The notes under the pieces: generated by a model | What the model saw: the letters and a program-made list of their open reading frames with translations, nothing else | The model's database searches: none | Told to the model about the DNA's origin: nothing | Program-made: the position numbers and the translations under genes | Assembly: GCA_043798985.1 (NCBI GenBank) | Contig: JAZDOE010000008.1 | Coordinates: forward strand, 2,332 to 66,331 | Direction of reading: 5' to 3' | Origin: Candidatus Falkowbacteria bacterium | Lineage (GTDB): Bacteria; Patescibacteriota; Patescibacteriia; UBA11705; JACRDX01 | DNA length: 64,000 bases | In this document: piece by piece, positions 17,178 to 46,672 of the stretch | Numbering within the stretch: position 1 is the stretch's first letter | Layout of the letters: each line of letters starts with the position of its first letter

Positions 17178-20100
17178 TTACATTAAACCTTTTGTTTGTT
17201 CAAGAATCTTTTTTAATTTTTCTTTTGCCTCTGCCAATCTTGTTTTCTCCGCGGCGACAACTTTTTCCGGCGCGTTTTTTATAAATTCAACATTGCTTAA
17301 CTTTCTTTCCAGCCCGCCAATATAATTTTCCAAATTATCTTTTTCCTTTTCCAACCGTTGCTTTTCTTTTCCAGAATCAATCAATCCAGCAAGCGGCATA
17401 TAAATTTCAATTTTTCCAATAATTGCACAGGCCGCTTGCTCTGGCTTTCTTGAAACAAAATTCAAATTCTCAACTTTAGCTAACGCCTTTATTATGTTTG
17501 CCGCGTCTGCCAACGCCTTGCCACCAATAATTTCAATGTCGATTTTTTTTGCCAAATCAACTTTATGTTCAGCTCGCAAATTTCTTATTTTCGTCACAAC
17601 TTCAACAATCGCGGAAAATTCTTTATCAACTTTTTCGTTAATCAACTTCTTATCAACTTTTGGCCATTCCGCAACTATTAAATTCTCGCGAATGCCCCCG
17701 CTTGTCATCCTGAGGCTCTCGAAGGATGACCATATTGCCTCCGTCACAAACGGCGCGAATGGATGCCACAACTTCAACAAATCTTTCAATATACTCAACA
17801 AAATCGCGTCTTTGTTTTTTTCAACTTTGCTGATTTCCAAATACCAATCAGCAAAATCATTCCATGTAAATTCGCGCAACAATTCGCCTGCCGCAGAAAA
17901 ATTATATTCATCTAAAAACTTCGTGACATCTCGTTTTAAACAATTCAACCGCGACAAAATCCATCGATCTGCTAACGTCGCGCCTGTCATTTCGAACCCG
18001 CCCACGGCGGGTGAGAAATCCCTTGTAGTCGTCAGCACGAACCTAGAAATATTCCACAATTTATTAACCAAATTTCTGCATCCCTCAACTTTTTCTTCAA
18101 AAAATCTAATGTCATTGCCCGGCGTTGTGCCAATTAACAATGCCAACCGCGACGCATCTGCTCCATATTTTTCAATCATGTCCAACGGATCAATTCCATT
18201 GCCGCGCGACTTGCTCATCTTTTTGCCATTTTTATCAAGCACCATTCCGTGCAAATAAACTTTTTCAAAAGGAATTTCGCCAAGTGCAAAAAAACTCATC
18301 ATCACCATTCGCGACACCCACAAAGTAATAATTTCATAACCAGTTTCCAACATTTGCGTCGGATGAAACCTTGCAAGATCGCCGGTTTTATTCAGCGTTG
18401 AAAAAGTCCACATTCCGGACGAAAACCAAGTGTCCAAAGAATCTTCATCTTGCTTCAAATTGAACGAACCGCACGAGCAAACTGCCGGCGGTAATTTTAT
18501 ACGCACATCTTTCGCGTTGTCCGGATATGTTAATTTATAAATCTCCAAATCGCTCAAATTTGTATTAAATCCTTTTACCACACGGGCAACATCGCCATGC
18601 GCCACCGCCAAAATTTTCTTGCCTGGATATTTTTTCGCGACTTCATCAAAAAAGGAAAAAACTCGTGATTTTAAACTATCAAATGACTCAATGCCTCGCG
18701 GAGAGTCATGATGCCACGCTTCAAAATCTTTTTTGCGAAACGCGCCCAATTCTTTGTCAGATTTTCCCTCAAACTCACCCATACCAACCTCGCGCAACCG
18801 TTTATCAAAAATTATTTTCTTGATTCCCAATTTGCCTGCCACGATTTTGGCGGTTTCCTGCGCTCTCTTAAAATCCGATGAAAAAATAATGTCTATTTTT
18901 TCTGCAAGCAACTCTTCCGCGACGGAAACAGATTGCGCTTTTCCTTTTTCTGTCAAACCATTTTCTTGATTTTTTATGTCAGAATTTAATTTGTCTTCAA
19001 CGTTGCTGCGCGATTCGCCATGCCGCAAAACGATAATTTCCGTATTTAATTTTTCAGTCACTTTAACTTCATTGCATTTTTCGCAATACCAAACAGGAAT
19101 TCTATGACCAAACCAAATCTGTCGGCTGATGCACCAATCCTGCATATTTTTCATCCAATCCAAATATCTCTTTTCAAATCTCTCCGGAATAAACTCAATC
19201 GCATGTTTTTCAGCGGCTTCAATCGCTTTTTCTTTCAAAGATTTGTTGCCTAATTTTTTAATCTTTTTATCAACCGCGACAAACCATTGTTTGCTTGGCA
19301 ATGGCTCAATCGCTGTGCCACAACGATAACAAATGGATAAATTATTATCTATTTCTTCTTCTTTTTCCAACAAATTCTGCGCGCGCAACCTTTCAACAAC
19401 CATTTGGCGCGCGCCCAAAACATCTTTTCCAGAATATTCTCCAAAATTTTCTTTAATTTTTCCATTCTCATCAATTACTTTTACAACTTCCAAATTGTTC
19501 GCCCGCGCCATTTGCCAATCAACAATGGAATGCGCGGGCGTTACGCCGAGCGCTCCGGTGCCGAAATTCATATCAACCTGCCAATCACCAATGATTTTAA
19601 TTTTAAGCGGCACACCGACAAAATCAACGCTAAATTCTTTGCCAATATATTTTTTATAGCGCTCGTCTTTCGGATTTACCGCGACAGCAGTGTCGCCAAG
19701 TTTTGTTTCCGGCCGAGTCGTGGCAATTGTAATCGGAAAATTTTTATTGTATTTAAAAGTATAAAGTTTTGCTTTTTGCTCCTGATATTCCACTTCGTCA
19801 TCGGCCAAAGTTGACTGGCATCGCGGGCACCAATTTACCACTCGTTCGCCACGATAAATCACACCTGAATCATACATATCCGCGAACATTTTTGCCACAG
19901 CCTTTATCCGCGGCTCATCTAATGTAAAAGCCTGCCGCGACCAATCCAAAGACGCGCCCATTTTCTTTATTTGATGCAAAATGGTTGTTTGCGTTTCTCT
20001 CAAAAACTCCCAAACTTTTTCCAAAAATTTTTCGCGCCCCAAATCATGCCGCGTCTTTTTTTCTTCTTTCCATAATTGCTTTTCCACAACATTTTGCGTG

Positions 20101-20369
20101 GCAATTGCCGCGTGATCAGTTCCGGGTAACCACAGCGCCCTAAATCCATTCATCCGTTTGTATCGAATTATCAAATCTTCAATCGCCAAAGTCAACGCTT
20201 GGCCCATGTGTAATTTTGCGGTAATATTCGGCGGCGGCAAAATAATTGTGTATGGTTTTGCCTTTTTCGGCAAATTCAAATTGTCTGGATTAAAAAATCC
20301 ACTTTCTTCCCAATCCTTGTAAATTTTATCTTCAAAATCTTTGGGAATGTACGCCTTTGGAATCTCCAT
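17178..20369 (-). CDS. valS: Valyl-tRNA synthetase with an inserted histidine-phosphatase (PGAM-like) domain of about 200 aa.
   Basis: PNITAKLHMGQALT (HIGH), the editing domain and the KMSKS region are present. Between the two zinc-knuckle Cys pairs (WYCEKC ... CSCG) lies a full His-phosphatase fold with VLRHGESRSN and AVAHGDVARV. Confidence 0.9.
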   Translation of the reverse strand: MEIPKAYIPKDFEDKIYKDWEESGFFNPDNLNLPKKAKPYTIILPPPNITAKLHMGQALTLAIEDLIIRYKRMNGFRALWLPGTDHAAIATQNVVEKQLWKEEKKTRHDLGREKFLEKVWEFLRETQTTILHQIKKMGASLDWSRQAFTLDEPRIKAVAKMFADMYDSGVIYRGERVVNWCPRCQSTLADDEVEYQEQKAKLYTFKYNKNFPITIATTRPETKLGDTAVAVNPKDERYKKYIGKEFSVDFVGVPLKIKIIGDWQVDMNFGTGALGVTPAHSIVDWQMARANNLEVVKVIDENGKIKENFGEYSGKDVLGARQMVVERLRAQNLLEKEEEIDNNLSICYRCGTAIEPLPSKQWFVAVDKKIKKLGNKSLKEKAIEAAEKHAIEFIPERFEKRYLDWMKNMQDWCISRQIWFGHRIPVWYCEKCNEVKVTEKLNTEIIVLRHGESRSNVEDKLNSDIKNQENGLTEKGKAQSVSVAEELLAEKIDIIFSSDFKRAQETAKIVAGKLGIKKIIFDKRLREVGMGEFEGKSDKELGAFRKKDFEAWHHDSPRGIESFDSLKSRVFSFFDEVAKKYPGKKILAVAHGDVARVVKGFNTNLSDLEIYKLTYPDNAKDVRIKLPPAVCSCGSFNLKQDEDSLDTWFSSGMWTFSTLNKTGDLARFHPTQMLETGYEIITLWVSRMVMMSFFALGEIPFEKVYLHGMVLDKNGKKMSKSRGNGIDPLDMIEKYGADASRLALLIGTTPGNDIRFFEEKVEGCRNLVNKLWNISRFVLTTTRDFSPAVGGFEMTGATLADRWILSRLNCLKRDVTKFLDEYNFSAAGELLREFTWNDFADWYLEISKVEKNKDAILLSILKDLLKLWHPFAPFVTEAIWSSFESLRMTSGGIRENLIVAEWPKVDKKLINEKVDKEFSAIVEVVTKIRNLRAEHKVDLAKKIDIEIIGGKALADAANIIKALAKVENLNFVSRKPEQAACAIIGKIEIYMPLAGLIDSGKEKQRLEKEKDNLENYIGGLERKLSNVEFIKNAPEKVVAAEKTRLAEAKEKLKKILEQTKGLM
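17704..17730. repeat. Family A palindromic element, copy A1 (GTCATCCTGAGGCTCTCGAAGGATGAC), inside the valS CDS.
   Basis: Hairpin with stem GTCATCC/GGATGAC, translated in frame as ESLRMTSG. Related copies lie at 52292, 55329 and 56273. Confidence 0.65.
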
Positions 20370-21729: not shown

Positions 21730-21806
21730 TGGTGGTCGCACCTGGGCTCGAACCAGGGACCTTTCGGATGTGAACCGAACGCTCTAACCAGCTGAGCTAT
21801 GCGACC
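21730..21806 (-). tRNA. tRNA-Val (anticodon CAC), with CCA encoded.
   Basis: Reverse complement GGTCGCATAGCTCAGCTGGTTAGAGCGTTCGGTTCACATCCGAAAGGTCCCTGGTTCGAGCCCAGGTGCGACCACCA. Confidence 0.8.
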
Positions 21807-22038
21807 TTTGTAAATATTTTTCTACTCGTTTCCTTAAATATCCTCGGCCAAAACCCGTTTTTAATTGTCGCTCCCTTTTCATTGCATCGTCCTTCACTAA
21901 ACATACCTCGTAATACGCCATCTCTATGCTCCCCATCCTGATCGTAGTGTGCGTTTTGCCCGAGAGATGCTCTGCCAATCTCCTTTCTAAGTTCCCTGTA
22001 CATCCAACATAAAACCTATCTAAATCTTTGCTATACAT
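21784..22038 (-). CDS. Small GIY-YIG nuclease-domain protein (UPF0213 / YhbQ-like, about 84 aa). Its reading frame runs into the 5' part of tRNA-Val(CAC).
   Basis: From the internal ATG at 22038: MYSKDLDRFYVGCTGNLERRLAEHLSGKTHTTIRMGSIEMAYYEVCLVKDDAMKRERQLKTGFGRGYLRKRV, which shows the GIY..YIG..R..H..E fold hallmarks. The stop codon is the TAG in the tRNA D-loop (GGTTAG). Confidence 0.6.
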   Translation of the reverse strand: MYSKDLDRFYVGCTGNLERRLAEHLSGKTHTTIRMGSIEMAYYEVCLVKDDAMKRERQLKTGFGRGYLRKRVEKYLQRSHSSAG

Positions 22039-22045
22039 ACCACAT

Positions 22046-22162
22046 ATCTTTTGCGCTCCCCGCCCAAAGCCCGAAGGGCATTGTGGCGGGCCCGCCAGAC
22101 TGCGAAGCTGTCGGCGGGTAACCAGCCCCAAGGGGGCCCCTTCGGGGCTGAGCTATGCGACC
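22046..22162. mobile_element. GC-rich structured element followed by a 16-nt duplicate of the tRNA-Val(CAC) 5' end. It forms the terminal portion of a tRNA-linked insertion.
   Basis: CCCCGCCCAAAGCCCGAAGGGCATTGTGGCGGGCCCGCC...CCCCAAGGGGGCCCCTTCGGGGC, then GCTGAGCTATGCGACC, the reverse complement of tRNA nucleotides 1-16. The motif is homologous to 44692..44897 and 46596..46672. Confidence 0.45.
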
Positions 22163-22779
22163 TTTTTACCAACTAATTTTTCAATTTTCAAAACCAGTGT
22201 ATCAACCTCCTGCGGCCTACCACGAAAATCAGTTCCTTCAATCGGCACAACTAAAATTGGCGCGCGCTCAAAATTTTTCGCCCAATCATTATATTTATCA
22301 TTCAAACACGCAATATATTCTTTATTTTTTTGGATTTCCTGTTCCATCATTCTACCGCGTCGCCGTATCCTATCAAGCAATGTTTCAACCTCACCCTTTA
22401 AATAAATTATCACATCCGGCGACGGCAACAAATCGGCCGCGCTTTCATAAATATCCGAATAAACACGCCATTCGTCATCACTCATAAAACCATCTGCCCT
22501 CAAAAGCTTCGCAAAAACCTCGGCGTTTTCATAAATACTGCGATCTTGAATCACTGAATTTTTTGCCTCGGCAATATCATGATGATTCTTTATGCTCTGC
22601 GCGAGAAAGAACAATTGAGAATGAAACGCCCACGTTTTTTTATCCTGATAAAATCTTTCAAGATAAGGATTTTCAGCAAAAAAATCTTCCAGACAAGTTT
22701 TAAAATTTAATCTTGCTGCCAATGTTTTTGTCAGATTGGTTTTTCCAGACCCAATATTTCCGGCAATCGCGATAAACAT
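22153..22779 (-). CDS. Deoxynucleoside kinase (dAK/dGK/dCK family).
   Basis: MFIAIAGNIGSGKTNLTKTLA (P-loop) ...ENPYLERFYQD... ; 208 aa. Confidence 0.8.
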   Translation of the reverse strand: MFIAIAGNIGSGKTNLTKTLAARLNFKTCLEDFFAENPYLERFYQDKKTWAFHSQLFFLAQSIKNHHDIAEAKNSVIQDRSIYENAEVFAKLLRADGFMSDDEWRVYSDIYESAADLLPSPDVIIYLKGEVETLLDRIRRRGRMMEQEIQKNKEYIACLNDKYNDWAKNFERAPILVVPIEGTDFRGRPQEVDTLVLKIEKLVGKKVA

Positions 22780-22782
22780 ATT

Positions 22783-22960
22783 TTGGTGGGCACAGATGGA
22801 CTTGAACCATCGACCCCCGCCTTACCCGCCTGCCAGAGTCTGTGGGCGCAACTGGACTCGAACCAGTGACCCCCGCCTTATAAGGGCGATGCTCTAACCA
22901 GCTGAGCTATGCGCCCACAGACGGCGGGCAGGTAAGGGCGGTGCGGCTATGTGCCCATTA
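22783..22960 (-). other. Composite tRNA locus: a complete tRNA is embedded between the two halves of a tRNA-like sequence. The outer 5' acceptor strand GGGCACA and the outer 3' half with T-arm and CCA are complementary, and the flanks are imperfect inverted repeats.
   Basis: The reverse complement of 22783..22846 is ...GGCGGGGGTCGATGGTTCAAGTCCATCTGTGCCCACCA, a perfect T-arm plus acceptor plus CCA. The reverse complement of 22948..22954 is GGGCACA. Flanks CCGCCTTACCCGCCTGCC and GGCGGGCAGGTAAGGGCGG are near inverted repeats. Confidence 0.3.
22843..22916 (-). tRNA. tRNA with anticodon TAT, Ile-type and unusual in bacteria. It is the inner gene of the composite locus.
   Basis: Reverse complement GGGCGCATAGCTCAGCTGGTTAGAGCATCGCCCTTATAAGGCGGGGGTCACTGGTTCGAGTCCAGTTGCGCCCA. 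Anticodon stem TCGCC/GGCGG, loop CTTATAA. Confidence 0.55.
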
Positions 22961-23003
22961 GATGCTCAAACGATATCACAAAAAAAGTAAATATTCAACC
23001 TTA

Positions 23004-23630
23004 TTATATCCAAATTCTCATTTCTCTTTCAAATAACCTCTCAACATTATCCTTTAACGCCGCGCCTAAAGAACCCAGCTCATCACGAGATATAGCCAAC
23101 TCGCTCTGTGGTTTTAGCAGCGCTTGAACAATTTTCTTGTTCAACGCAGTACTAATATCCAATTCAAGTGATTTGCGCGAGATATATCCAAAATGAATCA
23201 CCGCGCGAATTGCCCAAATATAACAAAAAAGCCGCACCTGTTCAAATTTTTTGTTCAAAAAAACTGTAAGCAAAAACTGTTCCAATAAATCCCAAAACCC
23301 CACGTCCCGTTCTTCGCCTGCGGCAACCTGCGAAACAAATCCGCGAATAAAATCGCGCACAAGTATCCATTCAGCAATGTCTTCTCCCATGCGATGCAAT
23401 AGCGCTGCGCCAATTAATTGCTTAATATCTTTTGCCCCTGCGATATTGAATTCAACAATACCAAAGCTCGCCAAATGACCGGCAAGTTTGCTATTCATTT
23501 TTTTTATACCACGACCAGCAACAACGACCTTTCCGAGCTCACGTGTATAAACCAAAAAAAGAGCATCCGCTCCGTTTTTTGCCTCATACTGATTCAGCAC
23601 TATTCCTTTTGTTTTTATTATAGAGAACAT
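23004..23630 (-). CDS. recO: DNA repair protein RecO.
   Basis: The N-terminal OB fold (KGIVLNQYEAKNGADALFLVYTRELGKVVVAGRGIKKMNSKLAG) fits RecO, and the gene sits next to ruvX. Confidence 0.65.
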   Translation of the reverse strand: MFSIIKTKGIVLNQYEAKNGADALFLVYTRELGKVVVAGRGIKKMNSKLAGHLASFGIVEFNIAGAKDIKQLIGAALLHRMGEDIAEWILVRDFIRGFVSQVAAGEERDVGFWDLLEQFLLTVFLNKKFEQVRLFCYIWAIRAVIHFGYISRKSLELDISTALNKKIVQALLKPQSELAISRDELGSLGAALKDNVERLFEREMRIWI

Positions 23631-44691: not shown

Positions 44692-44897
44692 GTAAATTGT
44701 GTTCCCCGCCCAAAGCCCAAATGGCATTGTGGCGGGCCCGCCTGCTTGCCGCCCTTGGCGGCTGGCGGCGGGTATCCATTGAACTACGAGAGGGTAAATT
44801 GTGTTCCCCGCCCAAAGCCCAAAGGGCATTGTGGCGGGCCCGCCTGCTTGCCGCCCTTGGCGGCTGGCGGCGGGTATCCATTGAACTACGGGAGGGG
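44692..44897. repeat. Two tandem 102-bp direct repeats, each made of a GC-rich structured element plus a 22-nt copy of the tRNA-Arg 5' end (acceptor and D-arm).
   Basis: TATCCATTGAACTACGAGAGGG occurs at about 44671, 44773 and 44875. The GC segment shares CCCCGCCCAAAGCCC-AA-GGCATTGTGGCGGGCCCGCC with 22046..22085. The four overlapping ORFs in the track are artefacts of the repeat. Confidence 0.7.
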
Positions 44898-44902
44898 AAA
44901 AA

Positions 44903-46562: not shown

Positions 46563-46595
46563 AGTTTCTACCCCACGAAAAAATGAGTACCTTTA

Positions 46596-46672
46596 CCCCG
46601 CCATCGGCGGGGCGAAGCGTGCGCGCTACCAACCCCAACGGGGCCCCTTCGGGGCCGCGCTAATCCCCGAAA
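46596..46672. repeat. Degenerate third copy of the tRNA-linked GC-rich element, upstream of tRNA-Pro(CGG).
   Basis: On the minus strand: CGGGGATTAGCGCGG (a degenerate tRNA-Pro 5' fragment) followed by CCCCGAAGGGGCCCCGTTGGGGTTGGTA. Compare GGTCGCATAGCTCAGC + CCCGAAGGGGCCCCCTTGGGGCTGGTTA at the tRNA-Val locus. Confidence 0.4.

Follow-up and report, generated by a model that had tools for sequence, protein, structure and literature searches.

In a 64-kb stretch of a Candidatus Falkowbacteria contig (JAZDOE010000008.1; hereafter "the window", meaning the whole stretch), a tRNA-Ile(UAU)-like gene on the reverse strand (22956-22784) encloses a second, complete tRNA-Ile(UAU) gene (22916-22843). We propose that a resident tRNA-Ile(UAU) gene was split by a hairpin-ended cassette that brought a replacement tRNA with it, such that the inner gene is functional and the outer copy is a shell. 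This is the explanation that we favor as the probable one, with moderate confidence. The proposal is built on the architecture of the locus, on the recurrence of similar nests around other tRNAs, and on the contrast between cassettes that carry a tRNA and cassettes that do not.

Architecture of the nested tRNA-Ile(UAU) locus

The cassette is ~108 nt long, and its junction lies exactly between outer anticodon-loop positions 35 and 36 (CTTA|...|TAA). Read along the reverse strand, to which all coordinates of the nest refer, the insert runs CCTGCCCGCC-GTCTGT-inner tRNA-CAGAC-TCT-GGCAGGCGGG. The left terminus, CCTGCCCGCC (22923-22932), and the right terminus, GGCAGGCGGG (22825-22834), which was located by fold and repeat analysis and recurs elsewhere, are joined by eight Watson-Crick pairs, one G.T (U.G) and one C.A. 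Inside them, the leader GTCTGT (22917-22922) pairs with the trailer CAGAC, which the same two analyses place together with a 3-nt bulge, TCT, at 22835-22842. Leader and trailer lengthen the inner acceptor stem (GTCTGT/ACAGAC) to a perfect 13-bp inverted repeat (22838-22850 and 22910-22922). The inner gene itself is called by ARAGORN as tRNA-Ile(tat), reaches 72 bits with the Rfam tRNA family (RF00005), whose gathering score is 29, and has a 7-nt anticodon loop; a preliminary description of this DNA, made from the sequence alone, had likewise recognized a complete tRNA with the anticodon TAT here. No CCA is encoded by the inner copy; it is encoded by the outer one.

Around the insert, the outer copy consists of an acceptor strand, a GC-C-GC D region, CCGCC, CTTA, the insert, TAA, GGCGG, a variable loop, a T arm, the second acceptor strand, the discriminator A and CCA. 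Outside the D arm its stems are complete, and its T loop, TTCAAGT, fits the TTCRANT consensus over a 5-bp T stem. The 5' acceptor strand GGGCACA, which is identical in the related loci L001 and L003, is the perfect complement of TGTGCCC at 22788-22794 (7 bp); the preliminary description had found this strand and placed it 2 nt away (22948-22954), and its correct position is 22956-22950. By a simple calculation, the chance probability of a perfect 7-nt Watson-Crick partner within 300 nt is ~0.02. The anticodon-stem strand CCGCC, which occupies 22933-22941 together with loop positions 32-35 (CTTA) and matches the inner tRNA, pairs over 5 bp with GGCGG at 22817-22821. The tRNA 3' half described earlier is present at 22824-22784 (TAA-GGCGG-GGGTC-GATGG-TTCAAGT-CCATC-TGTGCCC-A-CCA). 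Within it, loop positions 36-38, the anticodon-stem strand and the variable loop GGGTC (22812-22824) are identical to the corresponding inner segment, and the T arm, acceptor strand, discriminator and CCA follow at 22784-22811; taken together, the outer 3' half directly repeats that of the inner gene over 39 nt, at 85% identity. The GATGG/CCATC T stem of the outer copy also occurs in an un-nested Falkowbacteria tRNA-Ile(UAU), that of locus L250.

The outer D arm is shortened by 12-13 nt and reads GC-C-GC in place of GCTC-AGCTGGTTA-GAGC. The remnant of outer positions 8-26 (TA, GC-C-GC and A, at 22942-22949) was delimited by comparison with the inner tRNA and with L001, where the arm reads GTTC-AGCTGGTTA-GAGC. 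Matches to the inner tRNA in the outer 5' half are TAGC and GCA(C/T)CGCCCTTA; counted from the end of GGGCACA, TAGC and GCACCGCCCTTA both match it. Inner and outer stems differ at one acceptor pair and two T-stem pairs, and every one of these differences is compensatory. The two outer halves stand in normal order, 166 nt apart, in a single transcription unit; with this order at one locus, no bulge-helix-bulge motif and no D arm, the locus does not bear out the earlier suggestion of a split or permuted tRNA.

The imperfect inverted repeats that had been expected to form a long stem (22820-22834 and 22923-22937) are 87% complementary. For the 191-nt region the predicted folding energy is -100.5 kcal/mol (z = -6.9), a value that none of 200 shuffled sequences reached. 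The leader/trailer duplex amounts to -46.2 kcal/mol, as against -8.7 to -31.6 kcal/mol for the ten other tRNAs of the window. An interrupted helix of ~30 bp is predicted, composed of the outer anticodon stem, the cassette stem and the 13-bp extended acceptor stem. The idea that the tRNA is embedded in a large hairpin acting as a processing or mobility signal therefore holds as far as architecture is concerned, the hairpin termini being conserved and recurrent. The exact CCTGCCCGCC/GGCAGGCGGG pair is present once in the window, and related hairpins of the CCCGCC...GGCGGG type are found at seven other sites.

The nested locus itself contains no open reading frame (ORF). A putative sigma-70-like promoter, TTGAAA-18-TATAAT (23003-23032, reverse strand), named on an 11/12 match to the consensus, precedes the outer 5' end by 47 nt. 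Downstream, a deoxynucleoside kinase (dNK) gene has its start codon at 22779, 4 nt beyond the outer CCA, and no terminator intervenes. In eight genes of the window, AUA accounts for 52 of 229 Ile codons (23%); the inner gene would thus be needed, and we propose that it is the working AUA decoder.

Conservation, recurrence and cargo of the nests

Is the nest a peculiarity of one contig? Syntenic loci were reached through homologues of the neighboring dNK, which in the window is 100% identical to a Candidatus Falkowbacteria protein. In locus L001 (dNK 87% identical) the same nest is present; its outer D arm is complete, and two of its five outer T-stem pairs are broken. In L003 and L004 (66%; independent samples), the outer copy is intact save for a GC hairpin of 50 nt that has been added at D-loop position 21/22, and the leader and trailer carry a compensatory pair (GTCAGT/ACTGAC). 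L002 (86%) has kept the outer 5' half and the inner tRNA and has lost the outer 3' half by deletion; its partnerless left terminus has diverged to CCTGCCCAGCG. Plain, un-nested tRNA-Ile(UAU) genes are found in L005 and L006 (54%), and in L247 and L250. A genomically encoded UAU tRNA-Ile is rare in bacteria, one case being Mycoplasma mobile (PMC3575796). The preliminary description was right to call it so for bacteria generally; in this clade, however, it is the conserved gene at this locus (L001-L006, L247 and L250). In L001 (1968-2008) and L002 (2955-2995) we also note a 40-nt insert with the hairpin ATTCCG-CAAATA-CGGAAT, which directly follows the discriminator base and is directly followed by the CCA ahead of the dNK start codon; the insert is absent from the window and from L003.

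In-silico removal of the cassette yields a tRNA with the same anticodon that ARAGORN can call in L001, L003, L055, L131, L176, L086, L224, L218 and L232. After the same operation, ARAGORN calls no tRNA for the outer copy of the window. The earlier notion of a tRNA gene disrupted by another tRNA agrees with the precise 35/36 insert and with the callable tRNA-Ile(UAU) that removal restores in relatives. The window derives from a metagenome-assembled genome, and repeats can mis-assemble, so that an assembly or binning artefact joining repeated tRNA sequences had to be considered. We give this explanation almost no credence: the nest is present in independent NCBI, JGI and Logan assemblies (the window, L001, L003 and L004), its copies carry lineage-specific compensatory changes, and nests are found in a complete genome and in dozens of unrelated contigs.

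In 185,579 species genomes, a search for paired T loops with a spacing of 28-58 nt gave at least 120 loci, and in metagenomes a search for the cassette termini 78-108 nt apart gave at least 124 matches. A strict screen was applied to the 306 tRNAs of the fetched loci: besides the inner tRNA, it demanded an outer T arm no more than 60 nt away, together with an outer 5' acceptor strand that is perfectly complementary and has U8 after it. It yielded at least about 29 further nested loci with at least 14 anticodons, mostly in Patescibacteria. Nests among the genome matches listed belong to Saccharibacteria, Kerfeldbacteria, Liptonbacteria, Portnoybacteria, Parcubacteria, other Patescibacteria and one Omnitrophota; one lies in a complete Patescibacteria genome (L094, CP174359.1). 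Closely spaced double T loops beside RtcB in genomes outside the Patescibacteria (L065, L109, L021, L125, L077, L092, L054, L110, L102 and L012) are probably Y-RNA-like (YrlA) tRNA mimics of rsr-rtcB operons.

The termini of the window cassette recur in L001, L003, L055 and at least 120 metagenome loci. For example, the tRNA-Thr(GGT) nest of L055 has them exactly as in the window, CCTGCCCGCC...GGCAGGCGGG. Searching metagenome contigs for an exact 20-mer across the cassette/exon junction gave no match; the pattern made of the termini only did work. A complete tRNA (Arg, Thr, Val, Pro, Gly, Trp, Gln, Leu or Cys) is held by 26 of the 124 terminus matches listed, and relative to this cargo the termini are found in both orientations (19 versus 7).

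Inner and outer copies of the nests have identical anticodons. Some are near-identical self-copies (L212 and L245), and others are divergent and fully paired (L131 and L176); in L224 and L155 the acceptor stems of the two copies differ by compensated pairs though the tRNA bodies are identical. Most insertions are at 35/36, with others at 37/38 (Val CAC), in the D loop at 21-23, and in the T loop. Shells can be badly damaged (L082, L116 and L126), and some nests are multi-layered onions with unequal numbers of 5' and 3' units (L022 and L187). In L022 (4480-5160; GTDB metagenome-assembled genome FK3.bin112), at least three layers of tRNA-Thr(CGT) are nested (ATCG|...|TAA), 3' halves outnumber 5' halves, and the shells bear further CCTGCC-type hairpins in their D and T loops. 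In L187 (2480-3000), five tandem units made of CCTGCCCGCC, a leader and tRNA-Arg positions 1-21 precede an intact tRNA-Arg(CCT), which is followed by two units made of tRNA positions 22-76, a trailer and GGCAGGCGGG; this layout corresponds to recursive nesting at D-loop position 21/22.

The insertions are precise, and no target-site duplication is present at the junctions of L245, L224, L212, L187 and L155. Junction sequences fit neither an integrase/att model nor a target-duplicating transposon. Integrases commonly act on the anticodon loop or the T loop of a tRNA gene, where a copy of the 3' part is left behind, and the 39-nt repeat of the 3' half would agree with extra halves that are attachment (att) scars of a deleted integrative element, such as a phage or an integrative and conjugative element, that used the tRNA gene. 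It is very unlikely that the halves arose in this way. A 5' half lies upstream as well, no core direct repeat surrounds the insert, the insert is merely ~108 nt with termini that are inverted rather than direct, no integrase is nearby, and the same layout recurs at D-loop and T-loop sites.

The contents of the cassettes provide a further test, which was limited to cassettes of 98-128 nt with exact termini. When the flanks of the 124 terminus matches listed were joined, a tRNA resulted in 17 cases, and all 17 were among the 26 that bear cargo. By contrast, none of the 98 cargo-less cassettes among the matches listed lies inside a tRNA gene. That the cassette occupies a tRNA gene only in the company of a replacement tRNA argues against splicing. 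By this contrast, the insert knocks the gene out and lasts only where a replacement comes with it; an intron capable of being spliced would be expected on its own as well, in sole-copy genes.

About 49 of the 98 cargo-less matches share a sub-terminal ANNGCC/GGCNNT frame. At L172 (8600-9260), L202, L164, L201, L222 and ~45 other metagenome loci, we see elements of ~100 nt with the same termini and a tRNA-free, AT-rich, variable interior, each single-copy on a contig of 40-50% GC. The L172 element stands directly upstream of a 23S_rRNA_IVP (PF05635) gene, within a cassette flanked by inverted repeats. The interiors of the cargo-less elements do not appear to be structured RNAs (mean z = -0.13 over 49 elements), and the notion that a cassette interior always copies its flanks fails for them, as judged by eye.

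Fate of the outer copy

How might such a locus be expressed? We propose that the inner gene is transcribed from the promoter of the outer gene, in a transcript comprising shell, cassette, inner tRNA and, probably, dNK, and that this transcript folds into the interrupted ~30-bp helix. Release of the inner tRNA from a 13-bp stem within this helix suggests that a double-strand-specific cut, of the RNase III type, would come first. RNase P and 3'-end processing would then free the inner tRNA, to which CCA would be added post-transcriptionally. This scheme is modeled on established tRNA and rRNA processing. The outer halves would be the disabled shell of an older copy, here without its D arm as well, and would not be spliced into a second tRNA.

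Several observations weigh against this proposal. Between the window and L003, 94 of 98 nt of shell and cassette flanks are identical (72 of 74 nt in the inner tRNA), although synonymous sites are saturated: at four-fold degenerate sites only 10 of 37 positions in dNK and 16 of 39 in RecO are identical (27-41%). A dead relic should not be so conserved. The stem differences between the two copies are without exception compensatory, and CCA is encoded on the outer copy rather than the inner. RtcB and Archease, which serve together as the ligase in archaeal tRNA splicing, are common in the clade and adjoin the nest in L003. Of the 98 cargo-less matches in the cargo test, roughly half probably arose by chance in GC-rich DNA. 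Finally, out-of-register repair, as proposed below, would account only for layers added to an existing nest.

To explain why the shell is conserved, one must invoke selection, acting on the acceptor/T-arm minihelix and on the long helix, or else a recent lateral spread accompanied by co-conversion. The first alternative leads to an explanation that differs from our own only in what maintains the outer halves: selection would maintain the shell as a scaffold for RNA processing. The outer acceptor/T-arm minihelix and its CCA would give RNase P and 3'-end enzymes their cut sites and so separate the tRNA module from the dNK mRNA, and the long helix would prevent wrong pairing between the duplicated halves and the inner tRNA, besides offering a site for double-strand cleavage. 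The identity with L003, at saturated synonymous divergence, spans exactly outer position +1 to CCA, and only the D region differs, a part that minihelix substrates do not need. The compensatory change in the L003 leader/trailer helix and the compensated acceptor differences of L224 and L155 also fit a maintained scaffold. However, L002 has dispensed with the whole 3' shell and has still kept the inner gene, the outer T stem of L001 is mismatched, many shells are badly damaged (L082, L116 and L126), and lateral spread of the cassette with co-conversion accounts for the conservation equally well. We regard a selected scaffold as possible, though clearly the less probable explanation of the two.

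Could the outer halves instead be joined? The cassette would then be a new, protein-dependent bacterial intron: RNase P/Z or another nuclease would free the inner tRNA, the exons would be trimmed and ligated, for example by RtcB/Archease, and one transcript would give two tRNA-Ile(UAU), the outer with the 5' end GGGCACA and the exon joint ...CCGCCCTTA-TAAGGCGG.... In that case, the outer copies with several inserts that Patescibacteria carry would be working genes, each with multiple introns in the archaeal manner. The precise insertion, the 7-nt loop (CTTATAA) that removal restores, the nine relatives whose outer copies become callable, the compensatory differences between the copies, and the distribution of RtcB and Archease, which are widespread in Patescibacteria, are all in keeping with an intron. 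Site 35/36 is moreover favored by group I introns of Patescibacteria (PMC13011429).

We nevertheless consider splicing unlikely. No bulge-helix-bulge, a motif in which two 3-nt bulges on opposite strands mark the exon-intron junctions 4 bp apart, is present in the minimum-free-energy fold or in two slipped registers (CCTGCC/GGCAGG and CCCGCC/GGCGGG, each a perfect 6-mer), and in none of them do both splice sites fall where they should. The would-be splice sites, A35|C and G|U36, lie opposite each other in a continuous helix, and the sole 3-nt bulge, UCU, lacks a partner bulge at a distance of 4 bp. RNase P and RNase Z products end in 3'-OH and 5'-P, and RtcB does not join such ends. The outer copy of the window has no D arm, cargo-less cassettes are missing from tRNA genes among the matches listed, and no interrupted copy is without an intact one, either next to it or within it. 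The occurrence of the termini in both orientations fits recognition at the level of DNA better than recognition of an RNA sequence. ARAGORN in intron mode with overlap options calls no outer gene, no Rfam intron family, of group I or II, matches 22650-23100 at E <= 10, and none matches, nor does any other family, in 18 cassette loci. A group I intron specifically was rejected on the 108-nt length of the insert, where some 200 nt or more would be expected, a 5' exon that ends in A35 rather than U, and the absence of an Rfam core.

RtcB and Archease are absent from the 64-kb window. As nest-specific partners they were rejected: among the nested loci listed they adjoin only L003/L004, and relatives have them in synteny with RecO and a plain tRNA-Ile(UAU), which makes the L003 adjacency a case of ancestral synteny. 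In the Falkowbacteria relative L250 (4324-8051), a plain tRNA-Ile(UAU) is followed in order by Archease, RtcB and a PolyA_pol/HD gene that we read, on its Pfam domains and N-terminal sequence, as a putative CCA-adding enzyme; in another, L247 (7048-9594), Archease and RtcB lie beside a Pnkp-ligase/methyltransferase (Hen1-like) gene. This neighborhood is one of RNA-repair genes around tRNA-Ile(UAU).

Proposed spread of the nests and relation to known systems

The window contains three other interrupted tRNA pieces, of tRNA-Arg, tRNA-Pro and tRNA-Val, each beside an intact copy. The tRNA-Val piece is on the same strand as the nest. There, an 84-residue GIY-YIG nuclease ORF (21787-22038; Pfam PF01541, E = 8.5e-13), 745 nt from the nest, is placed between an intact tRNA-Val(CAC) (21730-21806) and a tRNA-Val(CAC) 5' fragment (22054-22162; positions 1-26) that has four GC hairpins in its D loop and includes the dNK stop codon. 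In L002, dNK runs directly into the intact tRNA-Val(CAC). The layout of a hairpin-bearing 5' fragment, an ORF and an intact tRNA is found at six loci for six tRNAs, namely Val(CAC) in the window and Val(GAC), Asp, Trp, Arg and Tyr in L002, L143, L158, L078 and L067. These GIY-YIG proteins have ~75-85 residues and consist of the catalytic domain only. When neighboring genes were clustered around 44 loci, GIY-YIG alone stood out (7 loci); the CCA-adding enzyme and LepA, at 5 loci each, look like ordinary synteny and were rejected as partners.

The other fragments in the window are also on the reverse strand. Two near-identical tandem tRNA-Arg 5' fragments (44692-44898; positions 1-28) are directly upstream of an intact tRNA-Arg(CCG) (44691-44620), and each has two GC hairpins at D-loop 21/22, CCCGCCGCCAGCCGCCAAGGGCGGCAAGCAGGCGGG and CCCGCCACAATGCCNTTTGGGCTTTGGGCGGG, of the CCCGCC...GGCGGG type. 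The tRNA-Val fragment shares one hairpin 32-mer with them. Likewise, a tRNA-like 5' fragment (46575-46660) just upstream of an intact tRNA-Pro(CGG) has D-loop mini-hairpins CCCCGAAGGGG and CCCCGTTGGGG and an anticodon loop that reads TTCG|CCCCGCCGATGGCGGGG|TAA; the intact tRNA-Pro(CGG) has a leader/trailer helix of at least 10 bp, GGGGTAGAAAC/TTTTCTACC. Elsewhere in the window, a valyl-tRNA synthetase (17178-20369, reverse strand; 1063 residues) contains an internal histidine-phosphatase-like segment with an RHGES motif, and its orthologue in L003 has a His_Phos_1 Pfam match.

The GIY-YIG layout looks like a free-standing homing endonuclease that uses a tRNA gene as both homology arms. A precedent is T4 SegB, a GIY-YIG homing endonuclease in a tRNA cluster that is reported to promote segmental amplification there (PMC2330249; PMC13096335). 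In that case a GIY-YIG gene likewise lies among tRNA genes, and cutting and repair lead to co-conversion and segmental tRNA duplication, as may hold for the nests; unlike that phage system, the nests are in cellular Patescibacteria, and the putative nuclease gene lies between a tRNA 5' fragment and the intact copy of the same tRNA. We propose that nests are made and spread by double-strand-break repair or homing at tRNA genes, with the tRNA halves serving as portable homology arms. A cut in the innermost intact copy, followed by out-of-register repair on a nested sister or donor allele, would add either a layer or a 5' unit alone; such repair would explain the onions and the 5' arrays. The small GIY-YIG nucleases found in the analogous tRNA duplications are candidates for the enzyme that cuts.

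How do the nests relate to interrupted genes of other kinds? Archaeal disrupted tRNA genes include bulge-helix-bulge introns at canonical and non-canonical sites and the split tRNAs of Nanoarchaeum (PMC4090602, PMC4033280). Like these, the nests are interrupted in the D, anticodon or T loop, sometimes at several sites, their halves are held by GC-rich complements, and RtcB/Archease occur in the clade. In contrast, the nest has no bulge-helix-bulge and holds a whole tRNA of the same anticodon, and interrupted copies are accompanied by an intact one, many being decayed. Group I introns in the anticodon loops of bacterial tRNA genes, with site 35/36 enriched in Patescibacteria (PMC13011429), share with the nests the phylum, the site and the precision of insertion. 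However, 74 nt of the ~108-nt insert are tRNA, which leaves no room for a ribozyme core, and the 5' exon ends in A.

Intervening sequences (IVS) of 23S and 16S rRNA are excised by RNase III without religation. They too have hairpin ends and interrupt a structural RNA gene at the tips of its loops, and the L172 cassette lies upstream of 23S_rRNA_IVP. The target of the nest, unlike theirs, is a tRNA, in which fragmentation is not tolerated; hence the replacement cargo. Integrative elements that target tRNA genes likewise restore the function of the gene that they disrupt, whereas the nest has no integrase or att direct repeats and supplies a whole tRNA, nested rather than fused. REPINs and miniature inverted-repeat transposable elements (MITEs) resemble the cassettes in their ~100-nt length, conserved inverted ends, variable interior and lack of an ORF, but the cassettes have no target-site duplication, occur once per contig instead of forming a large family within a genome, keep exact termini across very different contigs, and may carry a functional gene. 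The locus resembles each of these kinds in part, IVS and SegB homing included, and it departs from archaeal disrupted tRNAs, group I introns and REPIN-like hairpins in a defining feature. Full-text literature searches found no published description of nested bacterial tRNA genes, or of their invasion and replacement; the bacterial disrupted tRNA genes on record are interrupted by self-splicing introns only (PMC13011429).

Disrupted tRNA genes, whether they contain introns or are split or permuted, are regarded as a speciality of archaea and eukaryotes, and the nested gene would add a fourth type. For annotation, shells, fragments and GC hairpins present a hazard, as they are invisible to standard tRNA finders; for this organism, our analysis indicates which copy is the real AUA decoder. 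More broadly, the nests offer a testable system for the co-evolution of mobile DNA and tRNA genes in minimal genomes and a possible cellular counterpart of phage SegB-type homing. The cassettes would point to a selfish element that survives by replacing the essential gene it breaks.

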